A DNA stretch of 64,000 nucleotides from IMG/VR virus record IMGVR_UViG_3300037453_000152, one strand, 5' to 3'. Both the position numbers and the translations under genes were made by a program. Source of the DNA: a virus (taxonomy: Duplodnaviria; Heunggongvirae; Uroviricota; Caudoviricetes). Under the pieces are notes generated by a model. That model was given only the letters and a program-made list of their open reading frames with translations. It had not been told where the DNA came from and made no database searches. Below are positions 58,275-64,000 of this stretch, one piece after another. Each line of letters starts with the position of its first letter. Position 1 is the stretch's first letter.

Positions 58275-58760
58275 CCGTGGTCCGAAACCGAAAATGGGTT
58301 TCGGGACTGAAGAGGCCAGACAAAAAAGATTTTGTTGTCCAAAAAAATTTTTTTCCCGAAAGGCACCCCCGGTCTAATGGGCGAGAGCAATAGGCTGCTA
58401 CCCCTCCCCTATTTTAATGCCCCCAACTAAAATAGGCGATTCATCCGGTCGCGCACAGCCAGCGCGACCGGGGTTTTAATTAGTAAGGTAACCTTACTAT
58501 TTTTTTTGTTAATACACTGTTAACAAAAATTTAACAAAAAATTCACAAAAATTTAACATTTAAAATGTTAACAAACTGTTAAGCAATTGTTAAATTTCTG
58601 TTAAGTGACAAAACGCACGTTTGGCCAATAGTTGACTGCGTCAACCAATTAGCAGTCTCCTTGCTGGGGGGCCAAATTGTTAAATTTCTGTTAACAGGTA
58701 TTAGCAAAGTATTAACTTAGATTAAGTTTGTAGGCTGGGGCAGCAAATTGTTAAGAAAGT
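58275..58760. repeat. Non-coding segment with GC-rich hairpins and phased TGTTAA repeats
   Basis: CCGGTCGCGC/GCGCGACCGG stem, TAGTAAGGT-A-ACCTTACTA palindrome, and TGTTAA at 11-bp spacing. Confidence 0.65.
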
Positions 58761-58836
58761 GTTAAAAAGGTTCGGAATTGTGCGCATTGCACAAACCCGC
58801 TCAACCGGAGAGCGCGTTTTTTGTGCAACATGCCAA

Positions 58837-58865
58837 TAGACAAGATGCGCGAAAGATGATACAAT
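58837..58865 (+). promoter_or_regulatory. Early promoter TAGACA-N17-TACAAT
   Basis: Extended TGn -10, upstream of the 58937 gene. Confidence 0.6.
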
Positions 58866-58936
58866 TCTAATGTAAGGACAAACAAAACCACCGCCCCTGC
58901 GGGGCTGGGGTAGCCAAGAGAAAGGAAGTAATAACA

Positions 58937-59260
58937 ATGAAGAAGGCCATCATCGTCATCATCATGCTTCTGGCGCTGGTCGCTGGCGTGTGCGCTGGCG
59001 TAGCAAGCGCAGAGAGAGAAGCAAGGCGCGAGGCAGAGCGCAACACCTACGCATTAACCTGCGAGGTCGTAGAAGTAGACAGAGTGCGCGACGTGGTAAC
59101 CTGCGAGGACTACAATGGAAATCTGTGGGAGTTTTACGGGTGCGAGGACTGGCAGACAGGTGACTGCGCAAGCCTGCTAATGGACAGCAGAGGGACAGAG
59201 AGCGTGCACGATGACACAATCACGCACGCGAGATACAGCGGTTGGACGCTCAACAAGTAA
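58937..59260 (+). CDS. Hypothetical exported/membrane protein, 107 aa
   Basis: Signal-peptide-like N-terminus, SD AAAGGA, TAA stop. Confidence 0.72.
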   Translation: MKKAIIVIIMLLALVAGVCAGVASAEREARREAERNTYALTCEVVEVDRVRDVVTCEDYNGNLWEFYGCEDWQTGDCASLLMDSRGTESVHDDTITHARYSGWTLNK

Positions 59261-59351
59261 GCAACACACGCACGCAAGCAACAACAAAGGCTTGCGTGCT
59301 TGCTATACAACATGCACAAAACAAAGCAACAACATTTGTGCAATCTGACAG

Positions 59352-59380
59352 TTGACAAGCCGGGTAAATGGTGATACAAT
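59352..59380 (+). promoter_or_regulatory. Early promoter TTGACA-N17-TACAAT
   Basis: Consensus -35, extended -10, CCGGG in the spacer. Confidence 0.8.
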
Positions 59381-59437
59381 GTAGACAGAAAGAGAGAGAA
59401 ACACACAACAAACAAACAAAGAAAGGGAGTAACAAAA

Positions 59438-59596
59438 ATGACTAACACTGAAAGAGCAAACCGGATCGAACAGATTAAAAAGCAGAGATTCTTCCTGCAC
59501 ATGAAAGACCGCTGGGACGCTAAGGACTATGCGACAGACGCAAGGCTGGCCGCTGAACAGCACACGCTGGAGCGAGAGCTCAAAGAAGAAGAGTGA
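59438..59596 (+). CDS. Small early protein, 52 aa (MTNTERANRIEQIKK...)
   Basis: Own promoter and SD AAAGGGAG. TGA lies inside the hairpin GAGTGAAGC/GCTTCACTC. Confidence 0.7.
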   Translation: MTNTERANRIEQIKKQRFFLHMKDRWDAKDYATDARLAAEQHTLERELKEEE

Positions 59597-60073
59597 AGCG
59601 CAAAGCTTCACTCTTTTATTATTTGTGCAAGAGTTAGTTAGAACTAACTACTATTTAATTGTTAGTTCTAACTAACTACAAATGCGGCATCCGCTGACGG
59701 CCCAAACTTCAATGCTTTAAAGCGTTAAAGTATTAAATCGCTAAATTGCTAAAGATGTTAAATTTGTTTTAAATTCCCAAATGTTAAAATTGTGTTAAGT
59801 GAACGAAAAGTATGTTTTTGCGATAGTTGCCAATGTCAACTATTGCCGGTGCGCAAGTTAGTTAGCACTAACAATTAAATCCGTTAACGATCAGTTTTGG
59901 CACTTTAATACACTAAAGCGTTAAAGTGGAGAAAAATGTTAAATTTCTGTGAAGAATGTTAAATTCCTATTAACTACGCTTTAGCACATTAAAGCATTAA
60001 AGTAAAGTGTTTAAAAAGTTGGAATTTGTGCATGATGCACAAAAACGCCCTCTTTTTAGGCTATTTTTTTGGC

Positions 60074-60177
60074 TTGACAGAATTAGTATCCGGTGGTATA
60101 CTTAAGTCAGAAAGAGAGAGATAAAACAAAAAAAAATAAAAAAAGTGCTTGACAAAACGCCGACCGGGTGTTATAAT
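60074..60177 (+). promoter_or_regulatory. Tandem early promoters TTGACA-N17-TATACT (60074) and TTGACA-N17-TATAAT (60149)
   Basis: Consensus hexamers with exact 17-nt spacers, both containing CCGG. Confidence 0.8.
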
Positions 60178-60188
60178 TAAGACAGAAA

Positions 60189-60309
60189 TTGAGAGAGGGC
60201 AAAGGTTCGAAAGGGTAAGCCACTGAGCTGAGATGAGATCACCAGGAAGAGCGGACAGGGATTCGGTAAGACCGAAGAGCGCGAAACGCCCACCGCCGCC
60301 CTCTCTCAA
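60189..60309 (+). ncRNA. Candidate structured RNA / 5' leader, family unassigned
   Basis: 12-bp closing stem TTGAGAGAGGGC / GCCCTCTCTCAA enclosing nested GC-rich hairpins, starting just after a promoter. Confidence 0.45.
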
Positions 60310-60337
60310 AAAAAACAAAAAAGGAGATTGAAAAAAA

Positions 60338-62117: not shown

Positions 62118-62426
62118 ATGATTAACATTCGCACGATTAAAAAGCTCGCAAACAATGACGGCTTAACGCTGAAAAATGGAAAAGCAATCACCTATAAAAC
62201 CGGTTGGCAAGTTGCCACAGAAGGCGTTGAATGCAAGACCGCACGCGAAGCAATCGAAGCAGTCAAGGCCTACAATGGAAATTGCGGCGTCTGGTTTGCC
62301 GATGGTATTTACTACATTGACAAGAGCCACAGAGTAAACACGAAGCGCGAAGCGATGGAAATTGGTAGAAAATGCCATCAGATTTCCGTCCTCTGCTGGA
62401 AAAACATGAAGCTAGCTTATTGCTAG
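62118..62426 (+). CDS. Hypothetical early protein, 102 aa, TAG stop
   Basis: SD GGAGG. The TAG is in the stem of terminator GAAGCTAGC/GCTAGCTTC-T7. Confidence 0.75.
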   Translation: MINIRTIKKLANNDGLTLKNGKAITYKTGWQVATEGVECKTAREAIEAVKAYNGNCGVWFADGIYYIDKSHRVNTKREAMEIGRKCHQISVLCWKNMKLAYC

Positions 62427-62683
62427 CTTCTTTTTTTCGCCGTCAAAAATAGTTGATACTGTCAACTATCCTTTTTCGCACTTTAATACACTAAAGCATT
62501 AAAGCAAGACAAAATGTTAAAATTGTGTTAACTGCGCAAAAATCCCAAAACTGCTGCTGGAGTTAGTTAGCACTAACAACTGCTTCACTTCGCTAAACTG
62601 TTAATAACAAATAAGGGCACAGTGCACAAAAACGGCTACGATTATTTGTGCAAAATGACGATGCCCAAAATGAAAAAAAGTTG

Positions 62684-62712
62684 TTGACAACCGGGCATTT
62701 TAGCGTTATAAT
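62684..62712 (+). promoter_or_regulatory. Early promoter TTGACA-N17-TATAAT
   Basis: Perfect consensus, CCGGG in the spacer, followed by the conserved leader. Confidence 0.85.
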
Positions 62713-62768
62713 TAAGACAGAAATTGAGGGAAGGAAAACCCAATAAAAACCGGAAAGGAAATAAAAAA

Positions 62769-62909
62769 ATGTTTGAATACGAACTGATTCATCTGGAGAC
62801 CAAGGAACAGCGCATTATCTTCGGCTACGATGTGCGCGACGCGTTCCGGCGGTGCCCGAACCTGAACCCCGAAGAATGGAAAGTTATCCACAGCGAATAC
62901 ATTGACTGA
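62769..62909 (+). CDS. Small early protein, 46 aa (MFEYELIH...)
   Basis: SD GAAAGGA. The TGA is in the stem of terminator 62901-62926, which is followed by a T-run. Confidence 0.7.
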   Translation: MFEYELIHLETKEQRIIFGYDVRDAFRRCPNLNPEEWKVIHSEYID

Positions 62910-63072
62910 CCGAAAGGTCAGTCAATTTTTTTTAAAAAGTATCGCCACCGAAAACGGCCAGTTTTCGCACTTTAGCGCATTAAAGCAATAAAGTAAGATA
63001 AAAAGCCGGCGACTGGAGCAAAATGTTAAATTCCTGTTAACAAAAAAAATCAAAAAATTTTTCAAAAAATGC

Positions 63073-63101
63073 TTGACAAAACGCGCCCGGTCTGCTATAA
63101 T
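63073..63101 (+). promoter_or_regulatory. Early promoter TTGACA-N17-TATAAT
   Basis: Perfect consensus, CCCGG in the spacer. Confidence 0.85.
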
Positions 63102-63149
63102 TAAGACAGTCAAGGGGAACACCCCAGAAATTGAAAGGAGATACAAAAA

Positions 63150-63272
63150 ATGGAAATTTACAATGCTGATTGGTTCGAGATCATCGGGGACGCGATGGAC
63201 GAGGTCCAAGAGTGGGAGGACTTCGAGGCCGACATGGCCACGAACCCATATGACGATCCGTGGCTCACCTGA
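63150..63272 (+). CDS. Very acidic 40-aa early peptide (MEIYNADWFEIIGDAMDEVQEWEDFEADMATNPYDDPWLT)
   Basis: Own promoter and SD GAAAGGAG. The TGA lies in hairpin TCCGTGGCTC/GAGCCACGGA. Missed by the 60-aa track cutoff. Confidence 0.7.
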   Translation: MEIYNADWFEIIGDAMDEVQEWEDFEADMATNPYDDPWLT

Positions 63273-63316
63273 GCCACGGACGCCAAAAAAAATTTTTGGA
63301 AAATGAAAAAAAGTTC

Positions 63317-63345
63317 TTGACAAATCACCCGGCGCGTGATACAAT
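63317..63345 (+). promoter_or_regulatory. Early promoter TTGACA-N17-TACAAT
   Basis: Extended -10, CCCGG in the spacer, followed by a leader variant. Confidence 0.85.
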
Positions 63346-63394
63346 AAATTCAGAAAGGGAAAGGAAAATCCCAAACACCAGAAAGGAACTAAAA

Positions 63395-63697
63395 ATGAAG
63401 ATCTACAGAGTTATGACTGGATACGGCACCGACTTCTACGGCTACTCCGACAACACCGAACAGGCCAAATATTTCCTTGATAAGGAAAAAGCCCTTGCAC
63501 TCTATAAGACGGGCGAGCGCACCACGCGGAAAACCCTGATCACGACAACCTATAAAGACGGAACGCAAATCACCTCTGAAACTGGCGAAAAGTTCTTTGA
63601 ACGGCGCAAAAATGAAGCAAAACCCAACGAAAAAGTTGAGCTTGTGGAAGAAAAAGTAAATCTTTTCCGGTTTGAAGAAATTGAAGTGGAAGAGTAA
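63395..63697 (+). CDS. Hypothetical early protein, 100 aa (MKIYRVMTG...)
   Basis: SD GAAAGGA, TAA stop, terminator AAAAGAGGACT/AGTCCTCTTTT. Confidence 0.75.
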   Translation: MKIYRVMTGYGTDFYGYSDNTEQAKYFLDKEKALALYKTGERTTRKTLITTTYKDGTQITSETGEKFFERRKNEAKPNEKVELVEEKVNLFRFEEIEVEE

Positions 63698-64000
63698 AAA
63701 AATGGAAAAAGAGGACTTGAAAAAGTCCTCTTTTCTTTTTGAATAATTATACAGTTCCGGTGAATAATTATTCATTAGTAGGATAGTTAATTTGGTCAAC
63801 TAACTAATTTGGCAGTCCAGGAGGAAGAGTGCTAAATGGTTGCGGCCGGCAACTATTTAGATACTAAATATTAAGAAAATGTTAAAAATATATGAACTTT
63901 TTATGAACACACCGGCGCGCCCACGGCCAGGGCGCGCCGCATTTTCGCTCGCCCCATAAGCCGCCAAATTTTTGCCCCGCATAAGGCCGCGCTTTATGGC

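Follow-up and report, generated by a model that had tools for sequence, protein, structure and literature searches.

An array of recombination-shuffled small-gene cassettes with operator-like spacers in a family of large gut and rumen phages

The window analysed here, i.e., the whole stretch of 64,000 nucleotides taken from the IMG/VR record IMGVR_UViG_3300037453_000152, covers the latter half of a phage record of 127.7 kb (G000; CheckV completeness 77%) and carries towards its 3' end an array of small genes, nearly all with a promoter and all with a 3' hairpin of their own. The array is transcribed divergently from the portal/terminase module and is best explained as the start of the early accessory region of a member of a rumen/gut phage family. 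It begins at about 58345, instead of at 58760 as proposed in a preceding model-made reading of the letters (henceforth the sequence-only reading), and its 3' side is cut by the end of the window.

Between 58937 and 63697, ten open reading frames (ORFs) of 40-107 amino acids (aa) are found, in agreement with the about ten tiny ORFs noticed before. Ten promoters, all on the + strand, are situated between 58837 and 63345; nine of them score 11-12 of 12 and one scores 10 of 12 with an extended -10 box, and the array block holds 9 of the 11 strict-consensus promoter matches of the entire genome. By their sequence, they appear to be near-consensus sigma70 promoters of the host-sigma type. The earlier claim that almost every ORF has its own promoter holds for 9 of the 10 ORFs: ORF 62118 lacks one, and the promoters at 60074 and 60149 stand in tandem. 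A hairpin with a stem of 8-14 bp is present at the 3' end of all ten ORFs, as had been read, and in seven of them the stem starts inside the ORF. The spacers measure 122-741 bp (120-740 bp in the sequence-only reading), with the exception of a gap of 40 bp preceding ORF 62118. The units and the neighbouring module are:

58837..59299, + strand: unit 1, promoter 58837-58865, ORF 58937-59260 (107 aa, N-terminal membrane or signal segment), hairpin
59352..59617, + strand: unit 2, promoter 59352-59380, ORF 59438-59596 (52 aa), terminator
60074..60672, + strand: unit 3, promoters 60074 and 60149, structured 120-nt leader, ORF 60338-60646 (102 aa), terminator
61018..61354, + strand: unit 4, promoter, GGGAAGG..CCC leader, ORF 61101-61343 (80 aa), terminator overlapping the stop
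61540..61827, + strand: unit 5, promoter, ORF 61622-61816 (64 aa), hairpin overlapping the stop
61865..62430, + strand: unit 6, promoter, leader, ORF 61949-62077 (42 aa), promoterless ORF 62118-62426 (102 aa), terminator
62684..62926, + strand: unit 7, promoter, leader, ORF 62769-62909 (46 aa; family in 23 loci), terminator
63073..63280, + strand: unit 8, promoter, ORF 63150-63272 (40 aa, acidic), hairpin overlapping the stop
63317..63734, + strand: unit 9, promoter, ORF 63395-63697 (100 aa), terminator
50.7-56.8 kb, minus strand: portal, terminase and putative sigma-factor gene

The mini-hairpin GGGAAGG..CCC occurs at exactly the three positions given before (61062, 61907 and 62728) and nowhere else in the genome. 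As a conserved leader it is shared within the window, but not throughout the family: a family-wide leader hairpin was rejected, since the motif is mostly confined to the window and L001 and is thus lineage-specific. The 21-bp palindrome, the CTTTA/TAAAG box, the TGTTAA repeats and the TGCACA arms, all listed earlier, are real and essentially absent from the genome outside the block; their supposedly usual order, however, is complete in about four spacers only, and the list had missed GTTAG iron-type and tandem ArgR-type boxes.

Arrays of this kind recur throughout the family of large gut and rumen phages. Among 80 IMG/VR loci retrieved via a neighbouring conserved gene, those with about 10 kb of flank exhibit 7-21 co-oriented strong promoters on the same side, and in four largely complete genomes the block extends over about 14-18 kb with 25-38 promoters. 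Its content is hypervariable: clustering of the 1,365 ORFs from 63 regions, in which the flanking genes were counted too, gives 205 families plus 283 singletons. Comparison of close pairs yields 44 distinct indels, of which 13 have their two ends at matching register inside promoter-leader modules, whereas 2,000 null placements gave 1.4 on average and at most 6; these 13 collapse to 9 independent junctions. The junctions are chimeric, with the left part derived from the upstream and the right part from the downstream promoter, and the sequence shared at them ranges from 7-8 bp (the -35 box alone) up to 58 bp. Further crossovers are located at ribosome-binding sites.

The close relative L261 has the flank and units 1-2 in common with the window (unit 1 is first there too, and the unit 2 protein is identical), followed by ORFs 62118 (99% identical), 62769, 60338 and 63150, such that ORF 60338 is relocated behind 62118 and 62769. 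Each homology block in L261 opens at the ribosome-binding site or the ATG and closes at, or close to, the stop or hairpin. The alignment across relatives that had been proposed as a check thus reveals variation in both content and order, and the suspected shuffling of cassettes resembling the PeSL modules of T4-type phages is borne out by the promoter-register indels, the chimeric junctions and the reordering in L261. Relatives gain, lose and reorder units by crossover inside the promoter-leader repeats, a conclusion in which we have high confidence.

The cassettes add a further example to a known, PeSL-like kind of array. PeSL are described, in the T4-type phages RB49, phi1, PST and nt-1, as a strong sigma70-type promoter and a terminator stem-loop between small ORFans, with indels arising by crossover between modules, often from the -10 box to the Shine-Dalgarno sequence or ATG, and leaving a chimeric module (PMC2839356, PMC4122927). 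Equally, a sigma70-like promoter is joined here to the upstream terminator stem-loop between small ORFs, and indels among close relatives are bounded by modules and leave a chimeric one. Unlike PeSL, the array forms one polar block of 25-38 promoters next to the terminase module of a Firmicutes-type siphophage family; the phage is not T4-type, whereas PeSL lie in hyperplastic regions of T4-type genomes, its terminase being kin to those of SPbeta (YonF-type) and Enterococcus phage H1; and its spacers of up to 740 bp hold host-type operators, which the accessible parts of these papers (PMC2839356, PMC4122927) do not mention. Integron cassettes, which are promoterless and depend on attC sites and an integron integrase, differ in that here 9 of 10 ORFs possess their own promoter, crossovers occur at variable points of homology, and no attC family was matched. 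The host-takeover module of SPO1 and the pre-early region of T5 are terminal, co-oriented blocks of small genes with strong host-sigma promoters, situated in long terminal repeats and with cargo of shown functions; the array resembles them in its co-oriented small genes and strong host-sigma promoters, whereas a terminal position is only a candidate here.

The closest cultured counterparts are the Enterococcus phages H1, VRE9_1-4 and EF1/EF5, which are organised alike, with a terminase module, a palindrome-rich gap and a polar array; in these H1-type phages the array has 17 promoters and ends in HAD and exonuclease genes. The terminase of G000 is 45% identical to those of H1 and VRE9 and shows more distant kinship to SPbeta-type (YonF-type) and Kirov-type phages.

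Concerning the code in which the array is read, TAG as a sense codon raises the ORF coverage of the record from 0.44 to 0.89; TAG recoding is known from gut phages (bioRxiv 10.1101/2021.08.26.457843). ARAGORN found no tRNA genes in the 127.7-kb record despite the TAG recoding, the record being incomplete. Three array ORFs stop at a TAG within the terminator hairpin (61341-61343, 61814-61816, 62424-62426), TAG elsewhere being sense. In the terminator stem that overlaps the end of ORF 62118 (62407-62430 vs. L261 near 4630-4653), two bases are exchanged on both arms in a compensatory manner, and the same exchange turns the stop from TAG into TAA. Family-wide, the stem begins inside the ORF in 90 of 306 unit-final ORFs.

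A CCGG is contained in 9 of the 10 promoter spacers (window 59352-63345) and in about half of the promoters of L003, L017, L033 and L058, other lineages favouring CAGG or GATC; it possibly reflects methylation-linked control. Isolated perfect antisense promoters exist in the arrays of relatives (G003:171946, 175363; G004:25443, 30867; G001:106982; G002:117889). A candidate structured non-coding RNA follows promoter 60149 (60189-60310, closing stem of 11-12 bp, z -2.7) and has no match in Rfam. Stem-closed elements of 75-220 nt also follow promoters in L022, L042-L055, L062, L065 and L077, where their 3' arm takes in the next -35 box. In Rfam, nothing exceeded the cut-off, and none of the four weak matches was to an attC family.

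The host-takeover or anti-defence role suggested earlier for the cargo is a conjecture: none of the ten ORFs had a significant match in Pfam, PHROG or PADLOC. ORF 60338, in which H8, R13 and R16 are invariant, has a confident predicted fold but no clear solved match (Z 5.4 in a fold search, over half of the chain only), and its likeness to the colicin D tRNase domain (Z 4.5, root-mean-square deviation 3.1, 69 residues aligned) offers a weak hint, as a lead only, at a colicin D-type RNase fold. ORF 62118 has >5,000 homologs and a fold common to uncharacterised phage proteins, with a best Z of 4.3 and no clear solved match in the fold search; the name 'putative HAD' of viral clusters in the ESM Atlas, assigned automatically and without Pfam support, was not adopted for it. 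In the arrays of relatives (e.g., L060:6972-7415, L006:1037-1786), an NT5C/HAD nucleotidase-like protein occurs in 45 loci and a possible exonuclease in 20, these two being the commonest enzyme-like cargo. In L261, both families lie beyond the position matching the end of the window.

The sequence-only reading had described the spacers as a multi-motif regulatory code that it did not recognise. Its parts match, instead, operators of host transcription factors, and the HisR-type sites lie off promoters. The features concerned, none with an assigned strand, are:

59713, 59901, 59977, 60751, 60887, 61402-61429, 62479, 62968: HisR-type operators (matrix of bacterial sites)
58628..58648, others starting at 59823, 60721, 61372, 62449, 63783, 63836: MarR-type 21-bp palindrome, 7 copies (bacterial matches)
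59631..59678 (two), others starting at 59855, 60690, 60825, 62560: iron-regulon-type GTTAG boxes, six copies (Clostridia matches)
63740..63774: tandem ArgR-type boxes, cores at 63740 and 63761, 21 bp start to start
58507..58760: TGTTAA/TTAACA hexamer cluster with 11-bp period
58778..58794, second perfect copy at 60026: TTGTGC-N5-GCACAA palindrome, 7 copies in 5 lineages
59314/59335, 60948/60979, 62624/62645: wider arm pairs of the preceding palindrome
58481..58499: perfect 19-bp palindrome

The CTTTA-N6-TAAAG box matches the published HisR consensus; the HisR operator of Firmicutes is a 20-bp palindrome, bound in vitro by HisR of Ruminococcus gnavus with histidine, and bacteria carry one or two such sites in the control regions of his or histidine-transporter genes (PMC9413887). 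In Clostridia genomes, 4 of 5 matches to the strict HisR pattern precede hisZ or amino-acid ABC binding proteins. A matrix built from six bacterial sites only, with which the non-coding DNA of 31 lineages was scanned, yielded 101 sites in 21 lineages vs. 2.4 in shuffles; the window contains 12, all within 59705-62987, the best of which reach 16-22 bits (leave-one-out bacterial sites: 16.5-22.6 bits). The arms of the HisR-type sites are 87-99% conserved, whereas the middles vary, and 86 of 87 sites are distinct. None of the 87 overlaps a promoter, and their distances to promoters range from 48 to >2,000 bp without fixed register. Unlike bacterial HisR operators, 8-12 sites lie here between unrelated phage genes, off promoters and without a hisR gene; the ORFs downstream have no his-family match. 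Up to eight HisR-type boxes in tandem, situated between the boundary motif described below and the first promoter, occur in L046 (757-1221 bases upstream of the anchor gene) and at the contig end of L040.

The 21-bp palindrome is matched exactly >120 times in bacterial genomes. Of 80 such loci inspected, 54 have it immediately ahead of a MarR or MarR-GNAT gene of one MarR-family cluster, and judging from this context, it serves in bacteria as a site of MarR autoregulation. In other phage lineages it is rare. Two copies lie in the arms of an inverted repeat (58627-58678 / 63806-63857; 52 nt, 77% complementary). The GTTAG box precedes feoA (twice), feoB, DUF3793 and DUF2325 in Clostridia and matches the operator type of an iron-regulon repressor. 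For the HisR, MarR and iron-type motifs, identity with host operators in their bacterial gene context is shown at the level of sequence. ArgR-type cores like those at 63740 and 63761 number 24 in 10 lineages vs. 1.6 in shuffles, and TGTTAA repeats at exactly 11-bp spacing number 22 across lineages vs. 0.1 in shuffles. We take the tandem boxes at 63740..63774, with their 18+3 spacing, to be ArgR sites, and the TGTTAA repeats to be OmpR/PhoB-type boxes of WalR/PhoP-like geometry; the TTGTGC-N5-GCACAA palindrome is presumably PucR/CdaR-like and that at 58481..58499 presumably DtxR-box-like.

The operator mix differs between lineages. In Enterococcus phage H1 (L087:8554-9535), a 1-kb gap ahead of the array, conserved in VRE9_1, contains two perfect palindromes that we assume to be cre sites, Rex-type boxes and five ATAAC-N4-GTTAT palindromes; H1-type phages thus differ from the window in possessing cre- and Rex-type operators, concentrated in the gap ahead of the array. 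The clostridial Rex box, the consensus of which is published for Clostridia (PMC8457756), is the top de novo palindrome in relatives.

Regarding the proteins that would bind, no HisR/YerC, ArgR, Rex or MarR gene exceeded the family cut-off in G000 and three or four relatives (two of them complete), and the weak match of a TrpR profile in G002 falls on the tail of a GIY-YIG endonuclease. By contrast, YerC and ArgR are both encoded by a Clostridia genome that has HisR boxes in tandem. As the phage lacks the tested regulators, host proteins would be the most likely to load on the sites, and they probably do bind the operator sites of the spacers.

An explanation in two layers appears the best overall, and it is put forward tentatively. 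In the first layer, which the comparison of relatives bears out, the array is PeSL-like, each small gene (promoterless ORF 62118 excepted) having a strong host-sigma promoter, a ribosome-binding site and a terminator, and homologous or microhomologous crossover between promoter-leader repeats deletes, inserts and reorders whole units. In the second, for which the identity of the sequences is well supported, the gaps between a terminator and the next promoter hold copies of host repressor operators, those proposed here being of HisR, MarR-family, iron-regulon repressor, ArgR and OmpR type, with Rex in relatives. Once replication has produced many genome copies, these sites would titrate host repressors, and genes of amino-acid supply, iron uptake and redox would become derepressed. 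Given binding, a decoy function has a little less than an even chance; it is nevertheless the most likely purpose, because HisR-type sites avoid promoters and the mix varies by lineage. Coating or pulling of the genome end, tuning of the cassettes, and relics or sites of a phage protein rank behind it in this order.

The rival that survives best, though still unlikely, assumes that operators load host proteins on the first-entering end of the genome, either as an entry ratchet or as a shield against exonucleases and sensors, with derepression being incidental. It draws on a further feature:

58345..58372, + strand: boundary motif (T-tract, CCCGAAA, C-run), single-copy and family-wide

This motif is the best match in all 61 anchored loci, lies upstream of essentially all array promoters, usually 150-500 bp before the first, and is present in one copy in G000, about 4 kb from the terminase gene. 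It may mark a genome end or packaging site; if it is a genome end, the array would enter the cell ahead of all other phage DNA. An origin at the boundary is also possible, since the cumulative GC skew reverses near 56 kb. The density of HisR-type sites is 1.1/kb from the boundary motif to the first promoter, 0.28/kb in the array and 0.02/kb on the other side, with one site only on the terminase side of the motif; together with the single-copy, family-wide motif near the terminase gene, the concentration of the H1 palindromes ahead of the array and the lineage-dependent type of regulator, this speaks for loading at a leading end. The end itself, however, is a candidate: only one contig ends at the motif, which was not found in the Kirov terminal repeat nor at the Kirov or E3 record ends, and in H1 the motif scores best at the far end of the array.

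Tuning of the cassettes by the metabolic state of the host (histidine, iron, redox), by repressor roadblocks after terminators or by looping to the next promoter, ranks next and is likewise unlikely: the MarR- and HisR-type sites of the window often lie 30-120 bp after a terminator in fixed order, and for many sites the next -35 box follows at 50-150 bp, but the absence of all 87 HisR-type sites from promoters and their distances without register do not fit, and promoters this near to consensus would not need an activator. Least probable, and indeed improbable, is a reading in which host regulatory DNA was taken up together with promoters and multiplied by duplication, leaving the motifs as relics or as substrates for recombination, or in which a phage protein reads them. 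The shared flanks of window copies over about 58 bp (suggesting duplication as modules), the weak winged-helix gene in G000 and weak MarR-profile matches in two relatives might imply this, but arms are conserved and middles variable across 21 lineages, at least four distinct host-type operators occur together, and the mapped crossovers lie in promoter-leader modules or ribosome-binding sites, not in operator boxes.

Several points weigh against the two-layer explanation with decoy titration. A single incoming genome, with its ten or so sites, may titrate little until it has been replicated; the record of G000 is incomplete (77%); the weak winged-helix gene (G000:31350) could read one motif; and the sites used for comparison stem from Clostridia and other bacteria, which may not be the host of the phage. 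In relatives G003 and G004, the array is full, but HisR, iron and ArgR-type sites are nearly absent from it, which suggests that the sites are dispensable or replaced and the operator layer optional. As to the shuffling, junctions with repeats of 47-58 bp could be assembly collapses, whereas those of 7-8 bp, unlike the longest repeats, cannot.

The literature searched contains no report of a natural multi-factor operator decoy in a phage or of multi-operator spacers, nor does IMG/VR contain the exact MarR-plus-HisR composite. In synthetic decoys, a factor is drawn away from its native sites by operator DNA present in many copies (PMC7826281); unlike the phage array, which is natural, these are engineered. 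A DNA-only, lineage-tuned panel of operator mimics (HisR, MarR, iron, ArgR, Rex, CcpA) at the first-entering end, reprogramming metabolism by titration or aiding genome entry without any protein, is a reasonable but still tentative description of what the spacers may provide.

For defence and toxicity screens, the array offers hundreds of small early proteins that are still uncharacterised, and the cultured Enterococcus phages with the same layout constitute a test system. The operator mix could help to predict the host of uncultured phages. Host takeover by phages is usually credited to proteins and some RNAs; if the decoy reading is true, a natural multi-factor DNA decoy would represent a protein-free route to metabolic takeover.

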